Shown here: positions 8,939 through 62,719 of the stretch, piece by piece | How positions within the stretch are numbered: position 1 is the stretch's first letter | Layout of the letters: each line of letters opens with the position of its first letter | Source of the DNA: Nemertoderma westbladi | Lineage: Eukaryota; Animalia; Xenacoelomorpha | NCBI GenBank assembly: GCA_032718475.1 | Contig: JAUCBJ010001005.1 | Location: 1 to 64,000, forward strand | Length of the DNA stretch: 64,000 nt | Reading direction: 5' to 3' | Program-made: the position numbers and the translations under genes | Notes under the pieces: model-generated | Databases searched by the model: none | What the model was told of the DNA's origin: nothing | Seen by the model: the letters and a program-made list of their open reading frames with translations, nothing else

Positions 8939-8947
8939 TGGGAGCGG
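8939..8947 (+). other. Polypurine tract of copy A (tgggagcgg)
   Basis: Directly abuts the TGT start of the LTR; identical in copy B (34017-34025, minus). Confidence 0.75.
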
Positions 8948-10654: not shown

Positions 10655-11350
10655 TGTTAAAGCTTTTGCGGCAAAAATGTGTCGTTTTTGTGCAATACGC
10701 GAACTACTCTAAAACTGACAGTATCTCAAGGTATTTGAGAACTTATAAAAATTACGCCCCTTAGTGTTTATTTTGGTATAGAGCTATAGTGACGAAATCA
10801 CCAGCCATTGGCCAGTATTTTTCTTTGTCCCGTAGCCTCTATGTTATTTTCCCGGCCAATCAGCACAATTTTCACTTTACGGTTTCTTGAGGCCTTGTTT
10901 ACATATGAATATTGAATATGCCGCAATGCGAAAAAATCATTCATTCTGACTTCTGCCCGAATACCATCAGCATCGGCAAATCGGCAAATTTAGCGTATTT
11001 CAGTACTATTGTCAGTTGCGTGAGTGTGAGCGAATAATTATACATTCCTAAAGAATGTAAACACTGTGCAGTCTCATGACCATCCGTTGTAATTAGTATA
11101 AGTCATAACTCTGTGGGGTATTTAAAGCGAAGCATCTAAAGGAACTGTTGTTATTGCCCTGAAAGTAAAGCATAGTTTTGTAGATTAGTAGAAATCATTC
11201 GAATAATACAGAGTAACCTACCCCATTCTCTGCTATAGAATTCAGTCTCCCATACACAGTGGGTCATACGCCGTGCTAGGCTGGCTTCTACTGTACTGTG
11301 GTCATATTTTGTGGGGGCTGTCAGACATCATAGGACACATAAATTAACAG

Positions 11351-11689
11351 CGCCAGAGGGTAAAAAGAACAAGTGTCGCGGACACGTAGGTAACTGGTGT
11401 ATTAACGTATAACTGATACCGGGTAATAATGTTACATATAACATAGGTAAATGGCTACAGTAGCAATACGGTCATACACATAAGCAGTATCACGGTAAAG
11501 GAGCAGGTCTGCTATCCAGCAGTCAGGGTAAAGGTGATACAGCTCCGCAAGTGTGCGGAGTCAGGTAATCAGATAGTCTGACCCTGCTCACCGGGGGACC
11601 GGTCTTACACATAGCAGTATGACGTCACCCGGTGTGTTCTAACTAGTCACCACACAAGGTCTGTCAACCGGCTTGACGGTTGGCTGGCG
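11351..11689 (-). repeat. 3' LTR of Troyka-type element
   Basis: About 7 substitutions versus 17192-17530. Confidence 0.95.
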
Positions 11690-11692
11690 TGA

Positions 11693-11713
11693 TCCCTTTT
11701 TTTCTTTCTTTCT
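11693..11713 (-). other. Polypurine tract of Troyka-type element
   Basis: agaaagaaagaaaaaaaggga on the minus strand, 3 nt before the 3' LTR. Confidence 0.85.
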
Positions 11714-12389
11714 ACTTATACCTTTCAATAGTTAGTTCTGCCCTTTTCGGAATTGAAAATACAAAGAGGGTGCCGGCATTGACTAATGATAAGGCTTACC
11801 TAAATTACTTTCAGTTTCTCGCGAATAGGTACGGTACGTGTTATACTACAACTGTATGCACAATTAAATAAGGACATTTAACCAATGATCGGCTTTCCTA
11901 CTAATAATACTACATATAGAATGAACAACGCATGAAGACGCCTAACTAAATTACTTTCAGTTTCGTACGGACAAGGTCAGTCAGTTTATAGCGGATTGTA
12001 ACAGATTGGCAAAAAAACAGAACTATACTAAAGGGATACAAAGTTAAGCAAACAAACTATGAGCCAATAGTAATGGCCGCTGTAATGCACGGGATACCAT
12101 AAACACGTAGGAAAACTTGAGTATTGTAGTGTAATCATGGTGGAGGAAACCCATAGTAGTCTGGTGGGTGCGTATGATGCTGAGGACGCCGGGTGTGTGG
12201 AGGCACGTTGTCCACATCGTCGAACCCGAGGAACACCTCGTCTAGGGACGAAGAGGGTAATGGGGGGCGCGCTGGTGCCGGAGGGGGTGTAGTTGGACGC
12301 ACAGAAGGTACCGGAGGAGAGACCTGGTAATTTCGCTCACCCGGCGGTTCGGTGTCGGCTGGTTGTGGGGAAGGTAGACCCGCTGACCC

Positions 12390-15300
12390 CTAGTCATCGT
12401 CGTTGGACGAGGGTTCGTCGACCGCAGGTACCGAGGTATCGCGGTAGGGTAGCGATAACATTCGGGCCTGCGAACGCAGTTGGCGACCGACGAACTTCTG
12501 GACACTTACCCAGGATTGGTCCGTTGTCGCTACAATGTACCGGGGTCGGCCCTGTAGTTGCGGCGAATCGACGTGGAGGTAGACAATATCACCTACTTCT
12601 AACGGAGTATCTCTAGCGGAGCTACTGGGATGCGGATTTTTGGACTGTGCACTATGGGGATGATTGGCCAAACGACGGCGATGTTGCTGTTCGATAAGCT
12701 CAGAATCCATGAGGGGGAGTTGAGCGCCAGTAAACTGATCGCGTTGGAGCAGAATTTCTCGGGTGGATACGCCGCTCGACCAGATACGCGCATTTAACCG
12801 GGCGACGGCGAGGGCGATGGACACAACGGAGTAGGGTCCCCCTGAGGGATGGAGTTTAAGGAGCTCATCTTCTAATTCGCGAATGGCGTGTTCCGCGACC
12901 ACCGGATTTTTGTCTTTATTTTTGGTGCGACCCAACTCAATACGGATATGGTGGGCAGATAAAACCTTGTCGCCGACTAACGCACGGAATCCGGGTGCGG
13001 GATCGGTACAGATGACTGCGTGGGGGCCGCTAAGGGGGCACACACCGATGCACAACGTGAGGAGGCTATCCCGCAACGTTGTGTGTTGTTCATCTGAGAG
13101 GAACATGGCAGCGGAGTACGACGCGGCGGTTTCGCGGAGGATGAGGATGAACTGCCGATGGCAACGGATGACATCGGCAGCGAATGCGATTCCGATGGCG
13201 GCCGGAGGGTCACCGGATGATTGCTCGATGGATCGCCCTGGGGCGGAACGCAGCGCGGCGCATTGGGCACACTGCGAGTGGATGGATGTGATGGCTTCTT
13301 CCATGTCGAGGGCGTAGAAGTACCGCAGAAACGTAACGCGCAGCTGGGTACGCGACGGGTGTTGCAACTCGAGGTGCAGTGATGTAAGAAGACCAGAGAG
13401 CGCATGGCGAGAGACAATGATCATTTCCCGCGGAGCCGAGAATGCGGTGTGTCGAGGAACAATGAGGAGTCCGTCCATGGCGGCGGATGCGCAGCCGATG
13501 TACCGCTTAACGTCGCGGATGGTCGTCTCCTTCTTGGAGGGATGCGTGCCCTGTGCGAGGTGCGCCTTGGCTCGACGGATAGATGCGCATTCCTGCTGGG
13601 TGACGAGCCAGGTACTACGGGTGGCGTACAAGGGACGCGCTGGAGGGGGGGGGGGGTCTTCGGTGAGAACCTCCGCACGGATGATGGGTTCGTCGGCAAG
13701 CTGATTAACGAAGTCATAGACCTGGCACTGTGGATTAACACACTCGGGAATACTGCGACTTTGGAAGTCGGCTGGTAGGTTGCGCGAACCCTGGATATGG
13801 ACCACGAGGAGTGAGAACTGGCTCACCGTGGCAAGGAAGGTTGTGAGTCTCAGGCTGTTGGAGTAAGCCCCATGGGTAAGTTTAGCGAACGCCTGGACGC
13901 AGGGTTTACTATCGGTGACAACAGATGTGCGGGTAGTAGCGTGAGTGATATAGGGGGCGAAGTGATGAACAGCTGCCGCGATGCGAGTGCTTCCAATTCA
14001 CAAGGAAGCCATGTACGTTGATGGGTTTGCAACTTCGTGGAGTAGAACCCGGCGACGAGGAGTTTCGACTCGCGGCGGACATATAAGACAGCGCCGAGTC
14101 CATCGATGCTGGAGGCGGCGTCGGTGACGATGAACAGCTCGTCGGAGGGCCATGGAAGAACCACAGTATGGCATGTTTTCAGGGCGGCCTGAGCGCGCCG
14201 GAACGCACAAGTCGAAGACTCCGTCCACTGAATGATATTGGTGGAAGCGCCGAGTGCGAGTTCGTCGAGGTCAGAGAGAAGTGCTGCGCAATGGGGGAGA
14301 ACGCGCACGAGGACTTTATACGATCCCAGGAAGGAACGGAGGGACCGGAGAGTGTCAGGTTTATCGCAGGTTGCGTGGGCTGAAACGACATGAGACGACG
14401 CGGTCAGGGAGCCAGCAGTCCATTGCGAGCTAAGAATGGTAGTGGAAAGCGGGCAAATGACGGTCTTCTTGGGGGATAAACGTAAAGAAGAGCGTGCGAG
14501 GTCTGTGAGTAGCGCGTTAAAATTTGCGGCTAATTCGTCTATCGTGTTGCCACCACAATACAAATCGTCTGCGAGTTTACTGACGGCGCCATGCTTGATA
14601 AGTTCCCCGAGGACACGACAGATCAGTTCTTCCAAGGCGGTCTCGGATCCAGGCATACCCATGGTGCAGCGGGTATAGACTCGCACGCCGCGGAATGGTG
14701 TAACAACACCGCAGAACTTCATGGAGTTGCGACTAATGGGGATCTGGTAGAACGCACTCGCTAAATCGGTTTTAATGAGGAACTTATAGGAGCCGATTTC
14801 GCGCAGGGTAGACTCGACACTAGGGAGGAGTGATGGCTGGGGTTTAGCATACCGGGCGATCTCGTTAAAGGCTGTAACGAGACGAGTTCCTCCGTTGGGT
14901 TTGGCGACGAGGAAGGAGGGACTGAGATACTCCACATGTACCCCTGTGTGTTCGGGTGTAGCGAAGACACCGCGTTGTTCAAGTTCATCGAACCGGTCCT
15001 GCAACTCGACGAGGCGGTTGCGGCCGTATTGGGGTACGCGTCCTTTCTGTTGAGGGGGTAGAGTTGGTCCCATTTTGACAACGGCTTCGTAAGGGCCCGC
15101 GGCGCCGTTATATCCGGGGTACTCGGCTTCGAATACCGTGGAGTGCGCGGCGAGGACGTCGGAAAACTGGCAGCGTTCAGCGCTGGTGAGGATGTTGTCG
15201 GGGTCTAAGCGTACGCCGTCGACGGAACGGGGGTTGGGGCGATGGGTAGAGCGCGATGCAGGCGGTGGGACTGTATCAACGGCAGCGGTCGGTATTGCCG

Positions 15301-16950
15301 CCGGTTGGATGGGTGTTGCCAAGCAAACGTGAGAGTTCCGTTTGATCCTGACGGGGATCTGGGTGACGTTGCGGATGGCGATGGAACCGTCGCACACTTC
15401 GGCAAGGAACGGTTGGAACCAGTGGATGGTGGTGGGATGGATGGGGTGCCAGTAAGAGGGGCATGGTACTCGCTACCGGTAGAGTGAGATCCGCATCTGG
15501 CCAGACTACGATGGACTGGGTAGATGCACATACCAGTGTGGACTCGGGTCTTTGCGGGCGCGTGGAGGTTGAGTGCTGGACTCCGAAGGGTATTGTGGTG
15601 CCGTCCGGTAGGGTAATCGTCATATGGGCGGGACGTAGCGTTATATCATTGCGGTATAGGAACGGCATTCCACAAATGATGGGACATCCGAGCTCCGGGA
15701 CGACGAGACCGTTAAACTCGAAGGGAATCGAGCCACGGTGGACGACGAAACGCGTTTCGCCGGTAACCTTCATCTTAGACTGTCCATCGGCCTGTTCGGG
15801 AACCTGGCAACTACTCGGGGAGATATGGACGCCCAGCTGGCGGGCGAACGCCTCCCAGATGAGATTGGATTCTGCGCCACTGTCGAGTAGCAATCAAAGT
15901 GGACGGGACTGATAATCGGCTTCCAAGACGGGGGAACGCATCACAGCAACTCGGTGGGCCGCTGGTGGTTGGTTGTTACTCATTGGGGAATCATCGGGGG
16001 GCTCGAACTCGTCATTGGAACTAGCGGAATCGGCGATATTGATGGCGCGAGTCCGGATGAGGAACTGTTTATCCTGATCGGGGAGGAATGGGCAGGTACT
16101 GAGGAAGTGGTCGAAGTCCTTGCGTTGCGCCTGCTTGCACAGGGGGCAAACCCGGGCAGGTTGTGTGCGGTTCTGTAAACTGGCGCGGGTGGCGCGGGGC
16201 GACCTCCGTCATCTGGGAGCAGAACGTGCGCACGTCGGCTGACACGCGGAGCTCCTCCAAGAGGGACAGCATCGCCTAGCTGATCTCGGCCTTGACGGAA
16301 GCCAAGGTGCGGGAACGAAGTTCGCAGCCATATCGTTGCTTAACCAACGCCGGTAATTCCTTGTGGATGAGACATAACCAAGTCAACACAAGGAAGTTCT
16401 CCACTGTGGGGGAGATCTCCTCGGCGGCGGCGGGGAGCTCGCCATCATGGGTAATGCCCCCGAGGGGTGAGAGGAGGTTGTCATCAAAAAATGCTGTGAG
16501 ATGTTGGAAAAGGTCTTCATGGCGTTCCTCGTGTTCGAGGTGGATGGTGGAGAGATCTAGGAAGTGGGAGCCTGTCCATTGAAAACCGTAATGTAATCGG
16601 AGGGCCTGCCAGACGTATGAGAGAGATGTTGATTTTAGTACGATGGTGTTACGCGCGATAACCTGCGCGTAGTTGGCGATTTGGCCCAGCATGAACTCGA
16701 GGGAGATGAGTTGTTGCTGCGCGGTACGTCGTTGGGCGTCCGGAACACCGGCGGCGTCGTCGACGAGACCCCGGGTCGGACTCGCAGGAGAAGCCTTCTC
16801 CCATACTGCGCCAGCGGCAGTAAACCGCGCAAACTCTGGGTCGAGAGACAGACTATAAATCAATGTCTGGCGCCAGGACTCGAATGACGTGATGGATTCC
16901 TGAGTAGTGAGTTTAACTAAACGTGGAGCCTTTAGGTGTTGATTCGCCAT
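12390..16950 (-). pseudogene. gag-pol of Troyka-type element, broken by stops and frameshifts
   Basis: Gag 16276-16950; protease LLDSGAESN at ~15893; RT with DLASAFYQIP and LADD (13850-15397); RNase H VTDAAS; integrase H..LQHP..C..C, FAADV, TDPAPGF, NPVVAE..I.ELE (12390-13826). Confidence 0.9.
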
Positions 16951-17180
16951 GGTGAATGGTAGATCGGGTTGGGTACTGCGTGAGTCCGCAGTACCGGTTA
17001 GGTAGGTAGTAGCCTAACTGGTGGGTAGATCGCCAGTAGGTACCGGTAACGGCTGACTGGATAGCAGGAAGACGACAGAGGGAGCTCCAACCCCGGGTCG
17101 CCTGGTGAAGAGAACGTGTAGCGACTCTGACTTGCTGCTGACAGGCTGACTGGCTGAGGAGTGAGAATCGAACTCCGAAA

Positions 17181-17191
17181 CGTTGCCACCA
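17181..17191 (-). other. tRNA-type PBS (TGGTGGCAACG), tRNA-Leu-like
   Basis: Begins with TGG immediately after the 5' LTR; one mismatch to the common tRNA-Leu PBS TGGTGGCAGCG. Confidence 0.7.
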
Positions 17192-17530
17192 CGCCAGAGG
17201 GTAAAAAGAACCAATGTCGCGGACACGTAGGTAACTGGTGTATTAACGTATAACTGATACCGGGTAATAATGTTACATATAACATAGGTAAATGGCTACA
17301 GTAGCAATATGGTCATACACATAAGCAGTATCACGGTAAAGGAGCAGGTCTGCTATCCAGCAGTCAGGGTAAAGGTGATACAGCTCCGCAAGTGTGCGGA
17401 GCCAGGTAATCAGATAGTCGGACCCTGCTCACCGGGGGACCGGTCTTACACGTAGCAGTATGACGTCACCCGGTGTGTTCTAACTAGTCACCACTCAAGG
17501 TCTGTCAACCGGCTTGACGGTTGGCTGGCG
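17192..17530 (-). repeat. 5' LTR of Troyka-type element
   Basis: Direct repeat of 11351-11689. Confidence 0.95.
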
Positions 17531-18546
17531 CAGGTTAAACTGTTAAAGGTCTAAAAGCGCGAACAAAATGTTTGAAAGATTATGTCTGAAGTTTGGTCAA
17601 AAATCAGACAGTCTGTCTGACGGTACCTTGTAGTTTCAGTTTGAATAAAAACCGTAATAAATCGGCTAATCATTCCTGAAATTAAACCAAACTTGGTATG
17701 GTTGGTAAGTTATGTATGTAGTCCGTCGAAAGTTTACAAAGAATCTGAAGTTTGGTCAAAAATCAGACTGTCTGTCAGTCCGTATCGTTAGTTTCAGACT
17801 TTTGATAAACCCAAATAAGTTGGCCAATCTTTGATGAAATTAAACCAAACTTGGTACTATATGCAGTCTCGTGTTGCTCGAAGACAACACGGACGTGTAT
17901 TGACTGTCAGCTGGAATTATATCAAGGGACCTTGAATTATTCTCAGGTAATATTTGTTGGGCGAGCCACGAAGTTGACAGAGTCTTATCGAACTGATTAT
18001 GTTAGGGGGGGTAAGGACAAATAGTTGTTGTCGTTGTCATGCTAACAAGACTTTTGAAGACCATCAGATAAACAGTCTTTCGCTAAAGGACTACAAACCT
18101 AAATATTAAGTGTCCTCCTATTTCTTTGCTTTTAATCCGTTCTAGCTGAAACTTGGAATTTGTACAAAACCACTAGCTGTGTCATTTGAAGGTGGCTAAT
18201 CCGGCTGCAGTTCTCTGGTCAGCTGCTGGAGGGCGAAATGTCTCAAAGTGAAATCCTTGACCCATCTCGTTATTTATGATCCGTTCAAGCTGAAACTTGT
18301 TACATACTGTGTGTGCTAGAAGAGAACATATGTCTTTGTGGGGTCGGTATGAAAGTGAACCTTCTTCCATTTCCTTGATCCTAATTGACTTCTCCAATCA
18401 TCCCGAATAATAATCGGTACACAAACTGGTGACACTTTAAGGCGCACGGTACGGTAGGCCCTACTGTGCCACACTACTGTAGCTCCTAGGCCTACACTAC
18501 TATCAATTATTATTTTCTCTTTGTTAACAATTATATTACTTTTTAG

Positions 18547-26077: not shown

Positions 26078-26365
26078 TACATTTTAGCACCTATACAGTA
26101 ACTTCACACTTATGACTAGCACTACCTGACTACTGCACTAGCATCTACAGATCTAACTGGCGAATCTGACATTGTAACTGGGAGAGTGGTAACTGCCAGA
26201 CAACTCACCTGCCAGCATGCAGGTGCAGCTGTTGTATCCTACAACTGCTTACATCAGTACCGGTACATGGGTAGGTCAGTACATCCAACATCAGTAGGTC
26301 AGTCAGTCAGTAGGTACCGGTACCGCTACTGCACTGGTAAGCCGGCAGCCCGTCAGATAGAAATA

Positions 26366-26863
26366 ATGAACAATGGAAAACGTTTATTAGTGACAGTTGG
26401 CACGACTAAGTTCGCCGATTTGATAACAACTATCTGTTCGCCGCGTGTTTGTAAAGAACTTGAGATCCTGAAATTTACCAGAGTAGTTTTACAATATGGA
26501 AATGGCCCGAAACCGCTCCTTCCTGAAACCTCTAGACTAGATATAAGATGTTATAACTTTAAACCGTCACTTAGGGAAGATATGCAGAATGCAGATCTGA
26601 TAATCAGTCATGCTGGAGCTGGGAGTTGTTTAGAGTCGCTTTCACTTGGCAAGCAACTTATTGTAGTTGTAAATGATAAACTTATGGATAACCACCAGCT
26701 GGAACTTGCTAAACAATTTGCTTCGGAGGGATATCTAACATATTGTAATTGTGATAACCTTGGCGATACTCTAAAGCAATTTAACATTTCCAAATTAACT
26801 CCTTTCGTTTCTGGTGACACAAGTCTATTTTCTAAGCATATGGATTCAGTTATTGGGTTTTAA
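26366..26863 (+). CDS. ALG13: UDP-N-acetylglucosamine transferase subunit ALG13 (165 aa, intronless CDS)
   Basis: LVTVGTTKF, VLQYG.G, FKPSL.EDM..ADLIISHAGAGSCLE.L..GK.LIVVVN..LMDNHQLELA. Confidence 0.95.
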   Translation: MNNGKRLLVTVGTTKFADLITTICSPRVCKELEILKFTRVVLQYGNGPKPLLPETSRLDIRCYNFKPSLREDMQNADLIISHAGAGSCLESLSLGKQLIVVVNDKLMDNHQLELAKQFASEGYLTYCNCDNLGDTLKQFNISKLTPFVSGDTSLFSKHMDSVIGF

Positions 26864-32894: not shown

Positions 32895-34016
32895 TGTTCG
32901 CGCTTTTAGACCTTTAGCAGTTTAACCTGCCAATTTTAGTTGTCCTCTTGTTTATAAATCGACTTTAGCCTTTTACCAATTACCTAGAATCCAGCCGAAG
33001 CCAGTCCGTGCGCGGCGTATGACCCACGGTGTGGGAGACTGGATTCGGATTCCTTGGGAGTTATTGCAGTGTAGACCTACTGTATTATTCGATTGATCGC
33101 TACTATATAATCTCTGACAACTATATTCACTTTCGGGGAAATATTAACAGTTCCTTTAGGACGTGGCGCTTTAAGTATAAAAACAGAGTTATGACTTATA
33201 CTAATCACAACTAGATGGCCACAGAGTTTCGTAAATAGCGCATTCTTTAGGAGATGCTTTATTAACCTTCACACTACTTCACACGACTTCACACTACTTC
33301 ACACTACTTTACACTAGTTCGCACTAATCTGCCGACCGTCACTGAATTTGATCATATATAAGGAGGATCTCAACTGACACACGTAGGGATTATGAAATAG
33401 CATTTAATTCACACAAAACCACTATAATTTAAGTCGCAGTTGCTACCGGTTAACTCTATTCCTCTTACCTCAGTAATCAATAAGATTGATGGGTTTATGA
33501 TTATTTATCTGTATTCTCCAAATATAACATCAATATCCATTAATATAACAATTAATACTATAAACAGAAGTAAATAATGCGGTGAACAGTCAGTATGTGT
33601 TACTTATGCAGTTATGAAATGTTCAGTGGTGCGTCAAATAAGTTGAAATGTGATCAAATGTTAATAGATTTACGTTCTTATAACCAAGGCCATCTGATGT
33701 TCCTAGGCCAAAGTCTGAAACTTCCGCACAGAAGCACAGAAAATTCGGAGTTGGTTCTGATGCTCAGAAAATAGTAAACAAAGACCGTAATGCATTGCGT
33801 GAGTTTCCATAGGTTTCTGTTAGCTGTAAAGTGAAAATTGCTCTGATTGGCTGAATAAGACAACAAAGAACTTCCACGTCCACAAAGAATCAGCTGACAG
33901 ATTTCGTCATCTTGGTTCTAATTCCTTCCCGTCGCCGTTGGATAAATTTAGGGCTATTTTAGAGTACTCGGCGCATTGCGTAAAAATGACTTGTTATGTC
34001 CGCAAAAGCTTTTACA
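32895..34016 (-). repeat. 3' LTR of copy B (1122 bp)
   Basis: tgtaaaagc...gcgcgaaca on the minus strand; about 99% match to 48214-49170 apart from small indels. Confidence 0.95.
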
Positions 34017-48201: not shown

Positions 48202-48213
48202 TAAATCTATTAA
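48202..48213 (-). other. Non-tRNA PBS of copy B (TTAATAGATTTA), complementary to its own LTR
   Basis: Abuts the LTR end; exact inverted match to 48982-48993. Confidence 0.8.
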
Positions 48214-49170
48214 TGTTCGCGCTTTTAGACCTTTAGCAGTTTAACCTGCCAATTTTAGTTGTCCCCTTGTTTATAAATCGACTTTAGCCTTTTACCAATT
48301 ACCTAGTGTACTGAAGTTACATCAGCCAAAGCCAGTCCGTGCGCGGCGTATGACCCACGGTGTGGGAGACTGGATTCGGATTCCTTGGGAGTTATTGCAG
48401 TGTAGACCTACTGTATTATTCGATTGATCGCTACTATATAATCTCTGACAACTATATTCACTTTCGGGGAAATATTAACAGTTCCTTTAGGATGTGGCGC
48501 TTTAAGTATAAAAACAGAGTTATGACTTATACTAATCACAACTAGATGGCCACAGAGTTTCGTAAATAGCGCATTCTTTAGGAGATGCTTTATTAACCTT
48601 CACACTACTTCACACGACTTCACACTACTTTACACTAGTTCGCACTAATCTGCCGACCGTCACTGAATTTGATCATATATAAGGAGGATCTCAACTGACA
48701 CACGTAGGGATTATGAAATAGCATTTAATTCACACAAAACCACTATAATTTAAGTCGCAGTTGCTACCAGTAAACTCTATTCCTCTTACCTCAGTAATCA
48801 ATAAGATTGAGGGGTTTATGATTATTTATTGGTATTCTCCAAATATAACATCAATATCCATTAATATAACAATTAATACTATAAACAGAAGTAAATAATG
48901 CGGTGAACAGTCAGTATGTGTTACTTATGCAGTTATGAAATGTTCAGTGGTGCGTCAAATAAGTTGAAATGTGATCAAATGTTAATAGATTTACGTTCTT
49001 ATAACCAAGGCCATCTGATGTTCCTAGGCCAAAGTCTGAAACTTCCGCACAGAAGCACAGAAAATTCTGAGTTGGTTCTGATGCTCAGAAAATAGTAAAC
49101 AAAGACCGTAATGCATTGCGTGAGTTTCCATAGGTTTCTGTTAGCTGTAAAGTGAAAATTGCTCTGATTG
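48214..49170 (-). repeat. 5' LTR of copy B (outer ~166 bp displaced by copy C)
   Basis: Identity to the 3' LTR stops at gctctgattg, exactly where copy C begins. Confidence 0.95.
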
Positions 49171-50364
49171 TGTAAAAGCTTTTGCGGATATACTCAGTCC
49201 CCCTCGACCGCAAGGTACCGTTATAGGTGTTTTAACGGACATAAAAGTCATTCTTCTATATGTGTGCTTTGGTGGACATGGTAAGGCAAAAAACCCGCAA
49301 TGCGTCAAATACCCTGGCACAGCTTAGCCTTGATGATTCAGATTACGACATCTAACAGCTGGTTGCTGACATGGAAACAGCCATTGGACACATGGTTCTT
49401 TGTTTAGCTTAACAGCCAATCAGAGCGATTTTTTCTGTCGATGTGGAGATTTTTGGCAGATCATGCTAGGAGTGTTCAGTCTTACTGTTTTTCTTGATAC
49501 TGTTGTGTTGTTTCTATCTAGGCCAGGAACACCGGCTCTAGAGTCAATTCGTTTCAGACTTTAGAAGAAACATTAGTAGGCTTAAGATTATAGAGCGTAT
49601 AACTGTTATCTTAACATATCATATCACATACCATAACAATCACTTGTCATATCATATCTTAACCTACCGTCTTAATGCTTTTACTGTTGTCATATTTTGT
49701 ATCAGTTAGTTGAATATTATTTGGAGAACATTTATAAAGAACCCAAATTTCCCAATTTTCTTGATACACTACAGGTTAGAGAGACAGGTTACATATAGCG
49801 ATTGCGACTTACATTATTGTGGTTTGTAGTGAATTTAATGCTATTTGATAAGCCCTACATGAGTCAGTTGCTGTTCTCTTTATATATGATAAAATTCATT
49901 GACGGTCGGCAAATTAGTGAGCAGTATTGTGTGTTACTGGTAGTGCGCATGATTGTGACTGATAACTAAGCATTTCCTAAAGAATGCGCCTCATACGTGA
50001 ATCATAAGACTTACCGACTTACCGTTGTGATTAGTATAAGTCATATCTCTGTTTACCTAGATAGAGCGCCACGTCCTAAAGGAACTGTTAATATTTCCCG
50101 AAAGTGAATAATATTAGTCAGAAATTATTTATTAACGATCAATCGAATAATACAGTAAGCTTACACTGCAATAATAATCTAAGCCCTCAGAATCCAGTCT
50201 CCCAGGTATATCCAGCGGGTGAATGGACACGCACTAGGCTGGCTTCTGCTAATGTTGTGTTTATTGGTATTAAATATTTGTCAATTTCTAAAGTCTATTT
50301 ATAAACTAAAAGACATATAAATTTTGGCAGGTTAAACTGCTAAAGGTCTTCAAAAGCGCGTACA
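49171..50364 (+). repeat. 5' LTR of copy C (1194 bp)
   Basis: TG..CA ends; homologous to 8948-10213. Confidence 0.95.
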
Positions 50365-50375
50365 ATAACAGTTAT
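50365..50375 (+). other. Non-tRNA PBS of copy C (ATAACAGTTAT), complementary to its own LTR
   Basis: Abuts the LTR end; exact reverse complement of 49599-49609. Confidence 0.8.
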
Positions 50376-50429
50376 TGACTTTATTGCAGTAAGCAATAAA
50401 GTTGAAAGTACCGGTCGACCGGTAAACCT

Positions 50430-50560
50430 GAACCGGTACTTCTGTAGGTCAGTAGGCCCAACTGCCAGAACCGGTACTGCTGTAGTTCCGTAGGTCCAAC
50501 TGCCAGAACCGGTACTTCTGTAGGTCCATAGGCCCAACTGTCCTAACCGGTACTTCCAGT
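50430..50560 (+). repeat. ~38-bp tandem repeat in the leader of copy C
   Basis: aaccggtact occurs four times, with ...tagg(c/t)ccaactg between occurrences. Confidence 0.8.
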
Positions 50561-52599
50561 ATAAGTACATTAGTATTATTCGATTTTGATTATTGTATAC
50601 CGGTAGGTCTCGATATTAAATCGGGGACGCCTGGTTTTTATTGGGATTTTACTTAGGTCTATTTCTGTCAGTTTTATTTCCTAGTAAGTTAATATTGAGC
50701 TGAAGACGTGTAAGTCTGCTCAGATTGTTCAGATAACTGTAGGCCGGACTGTTGTCGGATTGTTGTTGGGTTTGGAGAGATTACGGCGTGTGTAGAGTTT
50801 GTCTGATAAAGTGCCAGTTAGTAAGTTGGGCCAGCCATAGCTGTAAGGTCAATCCCCTCTTAAAGAATAAGTTGTACTACCGTGTTAGAACGCATACTAA
50901 CTAACCATTTTGGAATCTGCACATACTGTAGTTTATTTAGGCTTGACAGTATTCTGCCAGCGTTTTGGCCTGTGTTTGTTTGTGTGGTCTGTTCAGGTAC
51001 CGTAATAGTTATTACTCAGATATTTTGTAGGCTGGATTGTTGTCTAGCTATTATTAGGTCTGAAGAGATTGCTGCGTGTATAGAGTTTGTCTGATAAAGT
51101 GCCAGTTAGTAAGTTGGGGCAGCCATAGCTGTAAGGTCAATCCCCTCTTAAAGAATAAGTCGTACTACCGTGTTAGAACGCATACTAACTAACCATTTCG
51201 GAATCTGCACATACGGTAGTTTATTTAGGCTTGGTGGTAGTCTGCCAGCATTTGGTTTGTATTTTGTTTGAGTAATCTGTACGGGTAGCGTAATATTTAT
51301 TATTCAGAGTTTATGCGATTATTCGCAACATTCATGTCCCCAAGTTTATTCCTACAGTAATTGTGCTTGTTATACATACCGTTATAGTTAAATTAACCCC
51401 GGTACTACACGGACTGCTTGGCGTAGGAAAAGACTGGTGACTTTGTGCTCTGGTCACTCCAGCAGATGCCGTGGTTCTTTTAACTGTTCAAGTATATTTA
51501 ACTACTGATTATTTGTTGTACCAGTACTTGTACCTAATTTAGGGTTTAGTGTACAGTGCTTTCCGAAAGTAATTAGTGTGTAGGCAGTATATTTGTGTTG
51601 TAAAGTGGTTAATAGGCACGTTGGATCTGGTAGTCCGCGGTAATTAACTTCTAGGTAGGAACACTCCGTGATACATATCGTAGTACCTATAGCGATACGG
51701 CTATAGGTCGTCAGGCGGTGGAATCTTCCTATCTGGACAGTGCAATATATTTACTACTACTTATTATTTTAAAAAACCGTAGTACCCTGTCCGTTGTAAT
51801 AATCAGAATCCTAACCCTTTATTAGGCTGGTTTGTAGACTTCCTGTGAAATTACCCTAAAAATTTCGTACGTAATATTTTGTTGTGTTTAATTAGAGATT
51901 TAATCTCACCTTTATCGTAAGTAATTTGCAGTATTAAGTAACTTAGGTAAATTAGAATTATCTGTTTTAGTGTCCATTAAATAGCACTTCACTGAGAGCG
52001 CACAGCTTCTGTGTAGTGACCCCCCAGAAATAATAACATTTATTTCAAATATTGACAAAACCCCCTTTAAACGGGTATATAAATATTATAAATCAACTCA
52101 AACGATTTATAAATAGTAGGCCTGCCATACAATAACTAGGTCTCAATATCGGTTGGACTACTGCTTAAATAACGGTAATAAAGTAAGTTAAAGTAACCAA
52201 GTAACCCCAAAATATTCAGAAATTCAATTATTCTAAAATAATTGACATACCGGTATTTACCATAGGCTTATTATATTTATTTCTATAAATTTGAACTAAA
52301 ATCATACCGGTATTCTGTAATTAATTCTAGTTTATAATTATACTTATATATACTATAAGTGTAAGCTGCATACCTGTATTCACGATAGGCCTATTATATA
52401 TTTATATATATTTGTCCTAAAATTATATACCGGTATTCTGAGACAAACCTAGTTTACAATACTTATATATATTATAAGTGTATACCGGTATTCTAATATA
52501 CTGTAATAAATTAACGGTACTAGGCCAACGGTCATACTGAATTACTAGACTTGCTTTAACGGTAACTATAGCAGTAGGCATTCAACCGTATAGCTAAAC

Positions 52600-55500
52600 A
52601 TGTCTGACACCCAGCAAAACCTGTCAGACAGTCTAATCGATACAACCATCTGTGACACAGATAGGAGTGTGGAGCGATTAAGAAAGGAGTTCAGCTCACC
52701 TCCTACTGAAAGAAAGGTCATCCCTCCAGTAGTAGTATCCGACCCTAAGCTAATCCAACACCGTAGGTCCATCATCGGCACTCGGGCCCAGGTCAAACGG
52801 AACCAGGAAGCAGCTGTCCAACAGCAGCAACATCCTAGTCAAGAAACTTGTTCCCAGCGATCCGATAGCTCCAGTAGTTCGGATACTGTAGAGCTGACCC
52901 CGAACGCGGAGTGCAGATGGCGGCTACAGCCTACTCGGATCCCCTTCTCACCCTTCCTGCCGCAGTGCTAACTACTATATTGATTGCGGTGGAGGAACAT
53001 CAAGCCGATTGGGCGAGAAGTAAGTGAGCGACCCAAGATAATTATGCGGGATACGCCAGGGAAGAATTGATGTCTATTGTCGAGTCACAATGGAACTTTC
53101 CCGGACCCGGACTTCCATTAGATTTGTCCGAAGCTACTTGGGAAGATATACACAGGATGGGAGTGGCTAAAGATACGATGGATCCAGCTGTTTGGAAGAG
53201 GTCGGCAGCAGGATATGTGCAGGGATTCTTCAGCTCCTTAGAGCGATTGGAAGAACAATTGTTTCGACAACCCCAAGGACCTCAAGAGCAGGAAGAGCTG
53301 CTTTATCAAGTACGCGAAAGAACCCTACGCATTAGACTAATCCTATCAGCCTTTGAGGAAACTTCCAAAAGAAGACAGGACACGTTGCTGCAGGTTGCTG
53401 TCAAGACTTGGTTCCAGCGGGTAGGTCTCAAAGTTCAAGAAACGGCCCAGTGGAAATCCCAGCTGACTGAGTGACCAACCTATGAAGAACCAACCGATAC
53501 TACCCTTTCTCAAATAGAAAGCGAAGAGACACCAGCAGAGCAGCCGCCCTCGAGAGACGCCATAGACATCTATCTGTCAGACTATCATCGATTCCTAGGA
53601 GACAAAGAGTTGAGGAGACGACTGTCTGGACTTCGCCCTAATAGTGAAGGAACCAAGCTTGTGTTGGACGCAATCGATGCGTAAATGTTAGCTGCAAACC
53701 AAGCTAAATTTGATGAAAAACTCCGCCTCGCTAGAGTCCAAGAAGAACAAGTAAAGAAAAAACGGATAGAGGACCGAAAGGCAGCAGCAGTAACGGCGGC
53801 AGAAGCAGAAGCAGCAAAGGCAGCGGCAGCGACAGAAGCAGAAGCAGCAAAGGCAGCGGCAGCGGCAGAAGCAGAAGCAACAAAGGCAGCGGCAGCAGCA
53901 GAAGCAGAAAGAAAGGCAGCGGTGGCAAAAGCAGAACTGAGAGCGTCTGAGGAGACTACCCAACTAGAGTTGGAAAATCTGCAAGAGACGCAAGACAACA
54001 TAAATAAACAGTTAACTGCTAGTCACATGCAGATGATGCGAAGATCTACTCCCAAACGCCAGGGATATACATCATCGGAGGAAAGCGAAACCACCGATCC
54101 TGAAGGCGGAGGAAATAGATCTCGTCTAAGCAGGCGTAGAAAAACATCTTACCGTCACAAATTGCCTGATTTGCCCCCAGCTGTTAGAAGGCAACTAGCT
54201 AGCACAGACTTAAGTAGTATAGAACCTACAGACCAAATTATTAAGGTCAAAAAACTCCCTACTATAGTTGATGAGCCTGAAATAATTAGGCCTGTCGTTC
54301 CCAAAGTCACTCCTGTGCTAGAGACCCCTGTACTTCCAGAGCTTAACTCTAAATTCCCTTTACACAGTACTACACTGCCTGTACCCGGTAGAACAGTCCA
54401 TGAGAATATCCCTGTCCTGGAAGCTGAGAGAGAAATCAAAGATTTGTCTCCTGTCGTCCCGCGTCAGCCCACTACAATGTTGGCGACTCCCGCTTCGGCG
54501 GTCGAGTGGGTAGAGGAGGGACGGCGGGGGATGAATCTCCTGCTCGGACAGATGCAGGAGACTGTCCACCAACTTAAGGGAACCGTAAGGGAAGGTAGGG
54601 CAGAATTGCAAGAAGTGCAGCTAAGTATCGCGCTAGAACGCGACAAATTAGTCAATATACAAAATGGTATACCAATACCCCCTGTAAAATTGTGTCAACC
54701 TGTTAGGTCTGAAGTATTACATGCGCAAGGTGTTGAGCCTACACGCATCTATACTGCTAGTGAAGTAGAAACTCCTGTAGCAAACCCTATTAAGGTTGAT
54801 TATAGACCTGTTGTTAATGATATTCCCTATAGACCTGATAATGATCCGAGAAATTTATACACCGATAATTCGATATTAAATAACACGATGGCCAAGAAAG
54901 CTTTACGCGTCAGATGGCTAGAACAGAAGCCCGCCAAGCGGTCAAAGTGGGAGAGATCGTCAAATTCAATGGAGATGAGATGAAATGGTTACCTTTCAAC
55001 GAATATTACAAAGACAGCATACAGAACTCTGTGCTATCTAACGGAGAGAAACTTAGGTTCCTCATCAAGTGCTTGGAAGGACCTCCCAAGTTAATGGCGT
55101 TAAAGTTTATTGGACATCCAGAAGGATTAAGACAAGTTTGGGATACATTAAACATCAGGTATGGTAACAAGGATAACATAGCTAAGTATTTGTATGCAAA
55201 ATTAGTAGCCCCCCGAAACTTCCTTAGTAGCGGGATTATAGAGTTTTCCGATGAGATTCAGGAGATCTGTAGACAATTGGACTGGTTAGGTAAGTCTCAT
55301 GAATATCAGAGTTCCATGGTTATTGGAGCCGTAGTCTCTACTTGACCAAAGGGTGGAGTATGTACCCGTTGGGACAAGAAAGTGTTGTACATGAATGAAC
55401 AGCAACGACGAAGCCCTACCATGACTGATCTCATGTCCTTCTTAGATGGTGAAGTGAAACTACAACTCATCAAGCAGTCCAGAGAAAAAACATCGGAAAA

Positions 55501-58500
55501 TAAGGTAAGTGAGAAACCCGTTTCTAGGAGAAGAGTCACACCAGTGTGTTACACTGACGACGGCGAAACCCAAGCTTCTCAAGAAGAGGACAGCGGGAAA
55601 GACACTGACAAATTTTACTACGTTAACAAAACCCCAAAAGACGTAAGTAAATATAAGGCTCGAACCAACGATAGGAGAGAACAGGTTGCCAAGACCCCTC
55701 CTCAGTCTCCTAACAGAATGCACGGAAGAAAGCCCGAAGAAAGAACGAGAGTGCATCAGGTTACCCAAGGTAAAGTGAGTAACATAAAACCTAACTGTGC
55801 TCTGTGCGACGGGACCCACCGTTTGAGTGCGTGTGCTGAATTTCTAAAGAAATCTCTTGTAGACAGACGTGCAGTCGTGTGGGATAAGCGGTTATGCTAT
55901 AATTGCCTCAGACCAGGACACCAACGGCGAACCTGTTACTCCGACGTAAAGTGTGCAAAGTGTAGCGCGAAACATCACATCTTGTTACACAGTGAGTTCG
56001 AACGAGACAACCCGAGTCAGGTAAGTGAGCCCGAACTACATGTCCAATTCAGTGATGTAAATGACACTGATCAAGAATCTGAGATGGAAGGATTCTATAC
56101 TGACGAATTCTCCGACGCCAACGAATCCTGTTATCTAATCAATACCGCGGTGTATCGAGCACTTACTTATGAAAAGGACACCAACAATGAGTTTCCCCCA
56201 ACTACTTTTGCCAGACAACCATCGTGGAAAGCTCCAACTTCCAACGTAGGAATCAGAGAATTTCCTGTAGTGCAGGTAAGAGTTCATGGTCCTAACAAAA
56301 GTTACATAGTGAACGCACTCCTTGACTCCGGCAGCACAGGAACATTCATCGATCAAGAACTAGCCGAAGATATCTTTGCTGGACAACCCAAATTCCGGAC
56401 TAAATTGAATATGTCAGGAATTATGCAGGTTTGGAAATCTACCCTAACGGCAGATTACTATGTAGGTGTGTTGTCCACCCCCCAGGATAAATTAGGAGCA
56501 CAAGGGATAAGGTCGGTAAAAATGGTGGCTATAAAGAACTTCGCTAATACCCAAGCAGACCTTTATAATTGGGACGAGGATGAGAGCATCCAACATCTTA
56601 AGATACCTCGATTCCAGACAGATTATCCTGGAGTGCAAATACTCATCGGCCAAAACGCGCATGAGGCGCTCGAGACATTGGAGAAACGGCCTGCTCAACC
56701 GCAGCCACTGCAAACCTATGCGGTAAGAACTAGAGTAGGTTGGTACTTTACTGGCCCTTCCCGCAGGACTCTCGAAGAGAGAATGCCACAAGAACGAATA
56801 TACCAAGTAAACGATTGGGAAGTGGAGAGCAGTGAGGTGGACGAACTAACTGAGGGAACACCATACTCCTCAGATAATGACGACATCTACCAGCTCTTCG
56901 ATGAAGAGAACACAATCGACCTACTTACAGAAAACCAAACTTGGAAAAATCAGGTGAACCTATGTCAACTGATTCGCCCATCGGAACCCATTGCTTACAA
57001 TGACGAACTAAACGATGAGATAGAGCGCTACAACGCTAGAACTCGGGACGAACTAGCCGTACGATTCTTTACTCAAGAACTGGTAGAGCCCAATTCATAC
57101 GATAAGGCTCTATCGATAGAAGAAGAAAGAGCCAAGCAAATCCAGGAAACAACTACACGTTTTTTAAAGGACCAAGGTAGATATGAAATCGGCCTACCAT
57201 TTCGAAAACGAGAACCTAGATTTATAAATAACAGACCCTTGGCAGAGAAAAGAATCGCTCAATTGCATCAACGCCTTACGGCTAATGCTTCAGCCAAAGA
57301 AATGTACCAAACTCAGCTGAAGAAATTTATAACAAAGGGATACGCGGAGTGAGTACCGGAAGGAACACCAGTGACTGAGAGAACGTATTACTTAACACAT
57401 CATTACGTTCCCAAACCCGGTAAACCCCATGAAGTACGAGTCGTATTCGATGGCTCCGCGCTATATATGGGCCAATCCCTCAATTCCGACTTGTTACCAG
57501 GACCCAACTTACTCCAATCTTTGTTGGGAATACTTTTAAGATTAAGACAATATTCCATCGCGTTCGCCTCCGATATAGAAGGAATGTTCTTACAAGTCAA
57601 GGCGCTGGATAGAGATAGAGACAGCCTGAGATTTCTGTGGTGGCCTGAAGGAGACCTCAATCAGAAACCTGTAGAGTACTGGATGACCATCCAGGCTTTT
57701 GGGATCATATCTAGTCCTTCCAACGCCTGCTCCGTGGTGCGAACCACTGCGAATGACAACCGAGACTCCTTCTCAAAAGAGGTGATAGACAACATCAAGT
57801 GTAATATATACATGGACGATAATTTAAGGTCCCTTCCATCAGTAGAAGAAGCCATTGATGTCGCGAAAGGAACAGTAGAGTGTTTGAAAAGAGGTGGATT
57901 TCGACTGACGAAATTCACCAGCAACTCCCGTGAGTTTCTGGAAGCGATACCAGTAGAAGACTGAGGAACGAAAGACCTAGACTTAATAAAGGACGATCTT
58001 CCTGAAACCAAGACGCTTGGCTTGAAGTGGGACACTGAAAGAGACATCCTGTTTTTTCAGTTAAAACAGCGAGATAATCCAGTTCGGACCAAACGGATTT
58101 GTTTAAGTATCCTGAGCACTTATTTCGACCCATTGGGATTTATTAGCCCAGTTATATTGATTGCTCGGAGTTTAGTACAACAAATGTGGCTTGAAAACCA
58201 CTCATGGGACGATCCGCTCAAGGGAGAACTGTTAAAGAAATGGATGAAATGGGAGGACTCTCTACCTGCCATCGAGAACTTTATAATTTCCCGTGCATAT
58301 TTTGGTCATGTTCTTCCTACTTATTCCTATCAACTCCATGTGTTTGAAGACGCCAGCGACATGGGAATAGGTATAGTGGCATATCTGCGAGTCGAAACTC
58401 CGGATGGAATCAAAGTCGCCTTGGTTACCTCTAAGGCATTGATCAACAACAAGTTAAAGGTTCCTCGAGCGGAGTTAAAGGCGGCTTTATACGCTACAGC

Positions 58501-60709
58501 CATCGGCCGGAACGTAACAGAACAAATCGACTATCCACTGGAGAAAACGGTTTATAACGGTTATTTAAAACGGACCGACGCTTTACTCGTGTTGGAGTAT
58601 CAAACCAATGAAGTCTGTCAGTTCAGCGTTTTTGTTACTAACAGGGTAGCTATTATTCTTAGTCGCACAAAGATAGATCAATGGAGACATTGCCCTGGTA
58701 CGATTAACCCAGCCGATATCGCCTCCCGGGGAGCAACTCCACAGGAACTGATAGATACTCCAGATTGGTTGGGTGGACCCGACTTCCTGAGCAAGGAAGA
58801 GGATAAATGGCCTCCTCACCTTACTACGGCGGAGATTAGACAAGCCAAGGGAGCGGAGACAGTCAAACCTAAAACCCGGGCGAGTAAATTGAAGTTATTT
58901 AAACCGACTATCGATCTATCTGTATTACATACTTCCGGGAATGATGCTTCGGATCCACAATCCCTCAACACAAATAAGGCTGTTGTGGAAATTAGAGGTA
59001 GAGACTGGAAATCTGGAATACCTGACATCTCGCACGGAATCTCACCCCTGCTGCAGCGAGCAATGCATCACTACAGTTCCTGGAATCGGCTCTGTAAAGC
59101 CGTTACGTATTTAAGGAGATGTTTTCATCATCACTACTCCAGGACAAAGACCATTAGTGATATCGCTCCATTGACATCTGCACAAGTTCATGTTATTAAA
59201 AATTTACCCAAATATAAGACATCTGACCGTTTTCTAAAGGAGAAAATTAGTCACCAGGAGCATGAAGAAACCAATAAGCAGATACTGAGACTCCTGCAAT
59301 GCTATGAGGATTCCGAAAAGTATTTCCTGTTGTTGAGAAATCCGCAGATGCGCTTAAGGGATCGATTCTCTAGCACAATGATAGATGGGTTAATACGTGT
59401 TGGAGGAAGGCTCACCAATGCGCCCTTATCCTTTGACACTAAATTCCCCATACTTATTAGAAATCTTGAAGTACAAATCAAGATGATTGTAGATGTTCAC
59501 AGTAAACTTTATCATGCTGGTAGAGAACGAGTTCTTAGCGAAATTCGAACTCGCTATTATTTTGATAAACCCCGTAGAGCTCTGAACCAAGTTCTTAGGG
59601 ACCGCATACCCTGTAGGAAAGCATTCAGTAGGCCTTTAACACAGCGAGAGGCAGAATTACCTAGGGAACGAGTAAGCTTCTATGAACCACCTTTTACTAA
59701 TACTGGTGTAGATTTATTTGGCCCTATTGAAGTATATCGTGCTAGGACTATAGTCAAGAGATGGTGTGTCATCTTTGTGTGCATGACTTGTAGAGCCATC
59801 CATCTCGATATGGTGAACGATCTATCTACCAACAGCTTCGTATTAAGTTTACGCCGACAGATCGCTCGCTTCGGGACGAGTAATACCATGAGATCGGATA
59901 AGGGAACGAACTTCATTGGTGCCAACAACGAAATACAGGCTTACGTGAAGGATTGGAACCAAAGACAGGTGGACGATCAGCTAAGGATAACAGCATCTAG
60001 CTGGACCTTTGACGCCGCCGACGCCCCTTGGTGGGGAGGAAGTTGGGAGAGATTAATTAGAAGTGTCAAGACCGCATTTCACTTTATAGTGCCATGCCGT
60101 GCGTATCTCACTGACGAACTTTTGCGGACGTTAATGGAGGAAATAGCTGCCTATCTCAACGAGAGACCGCTTATGCCAGTCTCATCGAGTCCCGATTCCC
60201 TGGAAGCGCTAACACCCACGCACTTCCTACTGAAGAAACCTGTAGCCATGCTCCCACGATCGGAGATTGCCGACGGAGACGAATACTGCCGTCGAACTTG
60301 GCAACTTATGCAGTTGCTATCTCGTCGTTTTGCTGACCATTTCGAGAAACATTATCTGCCCACGCTACAACTTCGAACTAAGTGGTTTGCGCAGCAAGAA
60401 AACGTCAGCGCCGGAGATATGGTGCTTATTGTAGATCCAGACCTACCACGTAAACGGTGGCAGACAGGTCGTATCATCGAGACTCACATCTCGGATGATG
60501 GTTTAGTACGCTCGGTAGAACTCATTGTCATGCGGCGTAACTTCAAGAAGCCAGGCATAATCTTTGAGACGCAACAACTCAATTGCCCAGTTGGTCGTTT
60601 ATGTTTACTGGAAAGAGACAGAGAACTCTCCGGAAACTATGGAAGGCAAGACACTCTTCCCACGACCACCTCCCTAATTCCTCAAACATCTAGGGACTCC
60701 CCAACGTGA
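52600..60709 (+). pseudogene. gag-pol polyprotein of copy C (Gag, three CCHC knuckles, protease, RT, RNase H, integrase) with several stops and frameshifts
   Basis: KFNGD...W..F (DUF1759-like), CALCDGTHRLSAC / CYNCLRPGH....C / CAKCSAKHHILLH, ALLDSGS, VRVVFDGSA, YMDD, integrase DDE. Confidence 0.93.
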
Positions 60710-61168: not shown

Positions 61169-62719
61169 CCCTATTAGTACCGGGCTATAAAATGCTGTAC
61201 AAATACCGGGGGGGGGTCATATTGACCCCTCCCTCTAAAATCTACAAATATTAACGAAAACGTCTGATTTTTTGTTTGTACGTAGGTATCACTAGTCTGG
61301 ATCCGACCGAAAAAAAAAATTTTCAAAAAAATGGACTGGAGTGGTAATATTGCAGCACCAAAATTACAAGTAGTGCACAATTTTCACAAAATTTGAAAGT
61401 TACATTTTTCGGCTAATTGTTTTTTAATACAGGTTTTCTGGGGCGCAAAATACATTGGAAAATATTTAAAAATGATATGATTACCATAAATGGCTGTTTA
61501 GTCCTCTATGCGTAGGAAAAAAATGAAAAAAACAAGTAACCAGCACTTTTCAGTTAGAACACAAAATTTTTAATTCACTTATACGATGCTATAAATTCAC
61601 ATTTTTAGGTTTTCTAGGGCGCTGATTCTAATGGAATACATTTCAAATATGCCAGATCATTGCTACTTGTATTTTTCGGCGTAATTTGGCAAATTTTGGT
61701 GCTAGCACCAAATTTCGTACCCATCACCAAAAAGTACAAGTTTGCGATGTCCAGTGCTGTTTTTATTGTTTCCATCGGATTCAGGACCCTCATAAACCCG
61801 TATAACGCAAGAAACAAGATGATACTATCTACTGATCAATTTACTCATTTTCCAAAATTTGGTGCAAAACAACAATTTTCACCCACCGGCGAAAAATACA
61901 AGTTTGAAAACTCTTATGAAATTTTTACTGATTCCATTGAATTCAGAACCCTAACAAACCCGTATAACGCAAGAAACAAGATGACACAATCAATTGATAT
62001 ATTTGATGGTTTTCAAAATTTGGTGCTAGCACCACATTTTGCACCCACTTCCGAAAAATACAAGTTTGAGATGTCTAGTTCGATAATTATATATTCCATT
62101 GAATTCAGAACAGCCATAAACCTCTAAAATGTAAGAAATAAATTGTCACAAGCAATTTTATCTATTGAATGGATTTTCAAAATTTCGTGCTAGCACCAAA
62201 ATTTGCACACAGCACCGAAAAATACAAGTTTGATACGCTTGGTGCAACTCGTATACATTTCATCGAAACCAGAACCCCAAAAAACCCAAATTGCGTAAAA
62301 AACAAGTTTCAAACAATCAATTTACAAAATTGACATATTTCAAAATTTGGTGCTGGCACCAAAATTTGGCACTCGCCGAAAAAAAAAGTTTGAAATTTCT
62401 AAATCAATTTATATGAATTCCATCCAATTGCTAACACCAAAAAACCGGTGTAAATAAAAAATAGAGATGTTACAATTAATATTTAATGAAATGTAATTTT
62501 CAAAAAACGTCTCAAAAAAAGTGCCAAAAGTAGGGTTAAAAAATGGTGCTATAACTCGAAAACTACCCAATATTTTTGAAAACGGTTTTCACTACTAGGA
62601 AGACAATAGATTTTTAGGAAAAGTCATAAAATTTCAGAATTCCAACTGCGTTTGTTTCAGAATTATAATAAAAAAACCACGGGAGGGGTCATATTGACCC
62701 CCCCCCGGGTTTAATAGGG
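61169..62719. mobile_element. Non-autonomous piggyBac-like element inserted in the spacer of copy C
   Basis: TTAA TSD at 61165-61168 and 62720-62723; ends ccctatta / taataggg; subterminal ggggtcatattgacccc; empty site present in copy A (~3446). Confidence 0.9.
61690..62480. repeat. ~161-bp internal tandem repeat, about 5 units
   Basis: aaattt(t)ggtgctagcaccaaa...aaatacaagtttg recurs at ~61692, 61855, 62014, 62177 and 62340. Confidence 0.85.

Follow-up and report, generated by a model that had tools for sequence, protein, structure and literature searches.

Complementarity between the LTR and the primer-binding site of a BEL/Pao retrotransposon family in Nemertoderma westbladi suggests priming by the element's own RNA

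Two copies of a BEL/Pao retrotransposon family in a 64-kb stretch of Nemertoderma westbladi DNA (the window, which is the whole of the DNA analysed) carry a primer-binding site (PBS) that is the exact complement of a site inside their own long terminal repeat (LTR), and where the two copies differ the PBS and the LTR site have changed together. The complementarity is real and strongly non-random. Reverse transcription of these elements is probably primed by the element's own RNA, whatever the source of that RNA, and we give a probability of about 0.6 to the more specific reading, based on analogy with Tf1, that the primer is the 5'-terminal RNA of the element. The start of reverse transcription is a defining trait of LTR retroelements, and self-priming would free elements from host tRNAs and from control by tRNA fragments. 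Should the trait extend to a whole branch of the Belpaoviridae, a reading weighed below, self-priming would have arisen for a third time among LTR retroelements, and the priming clause in the definition of that family would fall.

Self-comparison of the window revealed an LTR-retrotransposon family with three long copies (A, B and C) and one solo LTR (D).

8948-10213, + strand: 3' LTR of A, C subfamily, with a purine tract at 8940-8947
49170 to 32895, - strand: B, whole element, >16 kb
48214-49170, - strand: 5' LTR of B, truncated on its 5' side where C inserted
32895-34016, - strand: 3' LTR of B, 1122 bp, with a purine tract at 34024-34017
49171-50364, + strand: 5' LTR of C, 1194 bp, TG...CA; C runs past the window edge
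10655-17565, + strand: D, solo LTR of a third subfamily, 733 bp, split by a gypsy insertion
52594-60709, + strand: gag-pol region of C, broken by stops, with CCHC knuckles, a DSG protease motif, a YMDD reverse transcriptase (RT), Peptidase_A17 and DUF5641

In the LTRs of the family the first letters, TGTAAAAGCTT, directly follow the purine tract GGGAGCGG, and the last letters are GCGCG(T/A)ACA. Full lengths are 1122-1266 bp (733 bp in D, which is flanked by the 5-bp target duplication AAATG). The LTRs of A and C are 92% identical, and B and C share about 72% identity in the 3' half of the LTR and 83-85% in pol. At the junction 49170-49171, C is inserted head to head in U3 of the 5' LTR of B, in the region of the CCAAT box. 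Stops interrupt every coding region of B and C. Tandem arrays occupy part of the leader of C (50420-51310, units of about 38 and 290 nt) and the region after its pol (61684-62505, units of about 164 nt). The window also holds an intronless ALG13-like open frame of the host (26120-26863, + strand); its best match is just 52% identical, which marks the host as an animal distant from the species listed.

The Pol proteins are ordered as protease (DSG), YMDD RT, Peptidase_A17 (E 6.5e-34), integrase (Integrase_H2C2) and DUF5641. This PR-RT-RH-IN order with Pao-type domains therefore places the family in BEL/Pao, as a first-pass annotation of the sequence had done. PF05380 or PF18701 is present in all 114 Pol homologues listed, of which the closest is just 34% identical over the full length. 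No chromodomain match was found in the proteins of the family.

The sites that carry the main finding are the following.

49599-49609, + strand: candidate self-primer site of C, 11 nt, starting at the A after CGT
50365-50375, + strand: PBS position of C, exact complement of 49599-49609, abutting the terminal CA, no TGG
48982-48993, - strand: candidate self-primer site of B, 11 nt from A48992, 12 nt with the preceding T
48202-48213, - strand: PBS position of B, exact complement of 48993-48982
10905-10915, + strand: possible homologous site in D, which has no PBS

The first-pass annotation had reported that neither 5' LTR is followed by TGG, and reading both junctions bears this out for B and C. 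It had also described the PBS of C as the exact reverse complement of a site in the LTR; these coordinates hold, and the match is unique, with no other LTR/PBS complement from 6 nt up in C, or from 7 nt up in B. The site of C recurs in the 3' LTR of A at 9447-9457 and that of B in its own 3' LTR at 33672-33661. The sites of B and C are homologous, each following CGT within a short conserved block, and lie 766 nt (C) and 780 nt (B) from the LTR end, the distances proposed earlier. The pairing common to both is the 11 nt from the A after CGT, and the 12th pair of B uses the T of CGT. Between B and C, 4 of the 11 pairs have changed on both sides and none is broken, which confirms the claim that the LTR site of B (48993-48982) has changed to match its different PBS (48213-48202). 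In B and C alike the pairing ends exactly at the LTR/PBS border, so that the 3' end of the primer would lie beside the terminal CA, as had been argued. The 11-mer of C is nearly palindromic. When the PBS of B is compared with its own site as a direct repeat only 2 of 11 letters are equal, so it is not palindromic, and the caveat raised on this point is rightly limited to C.

Dinucleotide shuffles reached the observed match in 27 of 20,000 cases for C and, for B, in 18 of 20,000 (11 nt) and 4 of 20,000 (12 nt). When words of the window were used as pseudo-PBSs, 71 of 117,070 and 31 of 117,068 had such a match. The gypsy element in the window served as a control: its PBS starts with TGG and its LTR holds no complement of at least 6 nt. 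This element (11351-17530, - strand) has LTRs that are 98% identical, with ends that do not read TG...CA, and is inserted 35 nt before the end of D.

The shuffle rates, about 1 in 1000 per element, bear on the possibility that a host tRNA, half-tRNA or small RNA primes and that the LTR match is secondary or due to chance. The Belpaoviridae are tRNA-primed according to the ICTV (PMC8742986), half-tRNA priming exists in copia elements (PMC6317226, partial text), and one relative described below carries a TGG-type PBS. However, TGG is absent near the LTR end, and at three of the 11 positions (1, 8 and 10, including the priming position) no single RNA can pair with both PBSs, even with G-U pairs. 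A host primer shared by the two PBS variants known for the family is therefore ruled out, and two different host RNAs would leave the four matched LTR changes unexplained. A search of the window with ARAGORN and Rfam found nothing. We consider priming by a host RNA, or a chance match, very improbable.

Priming by the 5'-terminal RNA, modeled on Tf1, would proceed as follows. Transcription would start at the site or no more than about 10 nt away from it, and the 5' end of the RNA would fold back on the PBS, over a loop of about 760 nt, during transcription of the PBS. The RT's RNase H would then cleave behind nucleotide 11, and from the resulting 3'-OH, which would face the first base of the PBS, RT would copy a strong-stop DNA of 755-768 nt. 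The attached primer would be copied during plus-strand synthesis, and the PBS would be rewritten from the LTR site in every cycle. That every cycle copies the PBS anew from the primer is established for LTR replication, and if this applies to B and C it would explain both the co-variation and the sharp 11-nt limit.

Two features of the LTR bear on where transcription may start.

49416-49423, + strand: CCAAT box common to A, B, C and D, 183 nt (A, C) or 179 nt (B) before the site
49881-49911, + strand: TATAWAWR with CA 30 nt later, conserved in A, B and C, followed by GU-rich sequence

A start at the site is favoured by its A after a pyrimidine, by the conserved distance from the CCAAT box and by predicted folds that need a nearby 5' end. 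A pyrimidine followed by A also marks the 5' edge of the pairing in three of the five spliced relatives described below as it does in B and C, which we regard as a hint only. No TATA box was found at -30 of the site, and a TATA/initiator-like block with a perfect TATAWAWR lies about 310 nt downstream of it. From its sequence, this block may be either a rival start site or a polyadenylation region: it contains AATAAA in A, with a GU-rich tract behind it, and no other AATAAA is conserved among the LTRs.

If the main start were near 49911, the element's own RNA could still be the primer, though not as the template's 5' end. The primer might be cut from another LTR-derived RNA, be it a transcript with an upstream start, one that carries the site of the 3' LTR, or a small RNA, and might pair with the PBS in trans or through circularisation. 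Such an arrangement would fit the conservation of TATAWAWR with CA at +30 in A, B and C, the loss of the helix in folds with the full leader, and a loop that, at about 760 nt, far exceeds the 104-153 nt seen in the spliced relatives. Tf2 offers a precedent for two starts, since it has alternative starts of which one lacks the primer (PMC5341516, partial text). But the block fits a polyadenylation region equally well, solo LTR D has no TATA match at the homologous place, and the spacing from CCAAT box to site (183 and 179 nt) is conserved. In addition, a primer with a long 5' extension would be expected to lead to copying past 11 nt, whereas in C the pairing stops at the A and in B it stops one base beyond it. 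We regard a primer other than the 5' end as unlikely, and return to the 5'-terminal primer, whose pairing with the PBS was examined by RNA folding.

The primer:PBS duplex is predicted to be weak and AU-rich (-10.1 and -7.9 kcal/mol). When the folded RNA runs from the site through the last PBS base, the helix has a probability of 0.993 in C and 0.999 in B. Adding 45 nt of leader gives 0.98 in C and 0.42 in B, and adding 300 nt reduces the probability to about 0, with forcing of the helix costing 10.4 and 5.7 kcal/mol. For RNAs that end at the PBS, 10 extra 5' nucleotides leave the helix in place, and 45, 100 or 178 abolish it in C and bring it to 0.29 or less in B. Thus the helix is predicted to close only if the RNA begins at the site or within about 10 nt of it. 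Folds of 800-nt RNAs are unreliable, and because nested folding cannot represent crossing helices the loss of the helix in full-leader folds is ambiguous. This loss, the weak AU-rich duplexes and the lack of a TATA box at -30 are among the points against Tf1-like priming. The predicted structures around the PBS are as follows.

50322-50345, + strand: hairpin predicted close to the end of the LTR and conserved between B and C
50376-50405, + strand: predicted hairpin directly after the PBS, in B and C, with an alternative partner in U5 about 200 nt before the LTR end
50141-50153 with 50573-50585, + strand: predicted U5-leader stem that crosses the primer:PBS helix

Loss of the helix coincides with U5-leader stems that cross it, and the predicted stem is retained in B though its leader differs in length. 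A downstream duplex with U5 is predicted in the homologous place in both elements, where it is the best match in B (-21.6) and the second best in C (-16.4). The best downstream duplexes were equalled by 3 of 40 and 2 of 40 shuffles and the upstream duplex by 14 of 40 and 11 of 40. Flanking duplexes of the Tf1 'pretzel' type, as predicted here, are thus not clearly above shuffles.

These hairpins and the U5-leader stem would also suit a structural role of the pairing (PBS masking, dimerisation, packaging or translation control), with a hairpin or a protein acting as the primer. In fungal GalEa copia elements a palindromic motif and a hairpin replace the PBS, with no known mechanism (PMC5445492, partial text), and the near-palindrome of C could be seen in the same light. 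The sequence of B, however, is not palindromic, and the pairing ends at the base beside the terminal CA in B, in C and in five relatives, a precision that only priming requires. A structural role without priming is improbable, and own-RNA priming remains the reading that we carry to the relatives.

Relatives were drawn from 10 BEL/Pao loci on contigs of bacterial metagenome-assembled genomes, likely host DNA. Six were testable; L014 (all coding), L016 and L019 (about 1 kb) and L018 (which ends two bases into the PBS) were left out, and weak matches on G227:C197 and G429:C4 lie outside the set. In L006, L007, L012, L013 and L017 the PBS pairs over 11, 11, 11, 13 and 11 nt, respectively, with sequence that spans a GT-AG junction. 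These five have good splice sites, and their contiguous PBS matches are just 5-8 nt long. The spliced match was reached by 0-2 of 200 shuffles per relative. A shuffle null that allows any GT-AG joint is permissive for B (24 of 200), for which the contiguous test is the proper null. In the five relatives the site lies 104-153 nt from the LTR end and is made only by removal of an intron from the LTR, and the PBS abuts the CA. In four of the five, folds of the spliced RNA are predicted to form the helix with a probability of about 0.9 or more. The upstream exon supplies just 3-6 nt of the pairing, so a very short first exon would be needed if the primer of these relatives is the 5' end.

The remaining testable relative, L015, has a TGG-type PBS, which we take to be of the tRNA-His type. 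The motif found at this PBS, TGGTGCCGTGACC, also occurs in the 3' UTR before the purine tract of L006 (at about 3120) and L013 (at about 5370), where it is perhaps a relic or a second tRNA site. L006 was considered as a tRNA-type control and rejected since its TGG motif sits before the purine tract.

The window elements pair contiguously over 11-12 nt, against best spliced matches of 8 and 6 nt. No intron that would shorten their R-U5 and no conserved acceptor was found. The window family looks like an intron-free form with a very long loop.

A quick tree, built from 114 RNase H/A17 regions, puts B, C and all five spliced relatives in a 45-row clade (SH-aLRT 97) and L015 outside it. A more careful tree of 46 chosen rows gives the same split with moderate support (90/90, not starred), with B and C forming a long branch at the edge of the clade. 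The Pol trees were built without reference elements and the clade is therefore unnamed. The Sailor lineage, which comprises most mollusc BEL/Pao elements (PMC6238403, partial text), is a lead only as to its identity. Shared ancestry of the self-complementary PBS is plausible from these sequences but not proven. The first-pass annotation had proposed an independent origin of self-priming in BEL/Pao. Priming by own RNA is the best explanation of the data, but with five of six testable relatives showing the pairing it was probably inherited from a wider BEL/Pao branch and is not a local invention. At slightly below even odds, a whole branch of the Belpaoviridae may have dropped tRNA priming for 11 nt of its own RNA, in spliced forms and in intron-free forms with loops of about 760 nt.

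Order-level genome searches yielded no further element, and a scan of viral contigs found no Pol relatives. Matches to the conserved LTR-end motif at four metagenome loci and one viral locus were all attributable to chance (20-30 nt). Of seven public sequencing runs listed, six contain part of the window, with no RNA run on record among them. In contigs from three runs a C-like leader is joined to a B-like LTR end with the opening letters of the PBS (48210 to 50379), from either a further subfamily or a recombinant. Among the 40 of 563 rows listed for contigs of four public runs, no variants fall at the sites or PBSs, which is uninformative.

The family also has an extra open reading frame.

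5090-8869, + strand: extra ORF after the integrase in A, 1259 codons
37866-34302, - strand: broken counterpart in B

Residues 560-810 are predicted to form a DEDD-type 3'-5' exonuclease-like domain (ESM Atlas 0.93, PF01612 clusters), and the protein also carries zinc knuckles. Among 1.84 billion proteins it has one relative (P0237, E 2.4e-7), compared with which its first acidic motif looks altered. The AlphaFold model has a pLDDT of 29.6, a search of the PDB returned nothing useful and no match to an env family was found. That this ORF acts in primer trimming or RNA binding is pure speculation.

We found no report of self-priming in BEL/Pao elements in the literature searched, a scope that excludes subscription papers, Repbase reports and supplements. 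Word searches of two BEL/Pao surveys (PMC3118150, PMC554778) found neither 'PBS' nor 'tRNA', and one of a third survey found neither 'PBS' nor 'primer'. Self-complementary PBSs offer a possible reason for the failure of PBS searches on many families of BEL/Pao elements.

The mechanism itself is known from Tf1, where the RNA's initial 11 bases anneal to the PBS and RNase H cleaves between bases 11 and 12 (PMC7175516, partial text), and helices of the 'pretzel' cross the primer:PBS helix (bioRxiv 10.1101/2022.12.06.519325, partial text). Self-priming has also been proposed for Tj1, Tcn1 and the sushi group (PMC4600332, PMC6317226; partial texts). Tf1 and Tf2 of Schizosaccharomyces pombe, Tj1, Tosmo and the Tf1/sushi/Tcn1 elements resemble B and C in having an LTR-complementary PBS beside the 5' LTR and no tRNA match. 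Tf1 in particular shares the 11-nt pairing and the helices around the PBS, which are predicted in B and C (PMC7175516, partial text); this agreement in length between Tf1 and BEL/Pao would suggest that RT and RNase H set a common geometric limit. Unlike the Tf1/sushi elements, which are Ty3/gypsy chromoviruses, B and C have Peptidase_A17, DUF5641 and a YMDD RT and no chromodomain match. Their loop of about 760 nt also sets them apart from that group, and B and C are known from sequence alone. The first-pass annotation had named chromoviruses as the self-primers, which is correct for Tf1 and its relatives but not exclusive: for the Ty1/copia TAR lineage (Houba, Osr-1) self-priming has been predicted from an LTR/PBS complement of at least 10 nt (PMC6317226, partial text). 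The evidence for that lineage is, as for B and C, of the sequence-only type. The TAR elements are plant elements with another Pol order and an origin unrelated to that of B and C.

Within BEL/Pao, the spliced relatives share with B and C a self-complementary PBS of 11-13 nt that abuts the CA, and the same side of the Pol tree. They differ in that their site is 104-153 nt away and requires intron removal, whereas the site of B and C is contiguous and about 760 nt away. The ICTV describes the Belpaoviridae as having a PBS of 18 nt that pairs with the 3' end of tRNA-Arg or tRNA-Gly, LTRs of 0.2-1.2 kb and genomes of 4-10 kb, with replication poorly understood (PMC8742986). B and C agree with this family in their PR-RT-RH-IN order, Pao domains, TG...CA LTRs of 1.1-1.3 kb, purine tract and 5-bp duplication, but have no 18-nt tRNA-Arg/Gly PBS. 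B exceeds 16 kb and the leader of the window family is 2.2 kb long. The extra 3' ORF, with its predicted exonuclease-like domain and no env match, is a further difference. The Pol phylogeny keeps the window family in the Belpaoviridae, and the priming clause of the definition fails for it. What is new relative to Tf1 is the family in which the complementarity occurs and its layout, with an unusually long loop.
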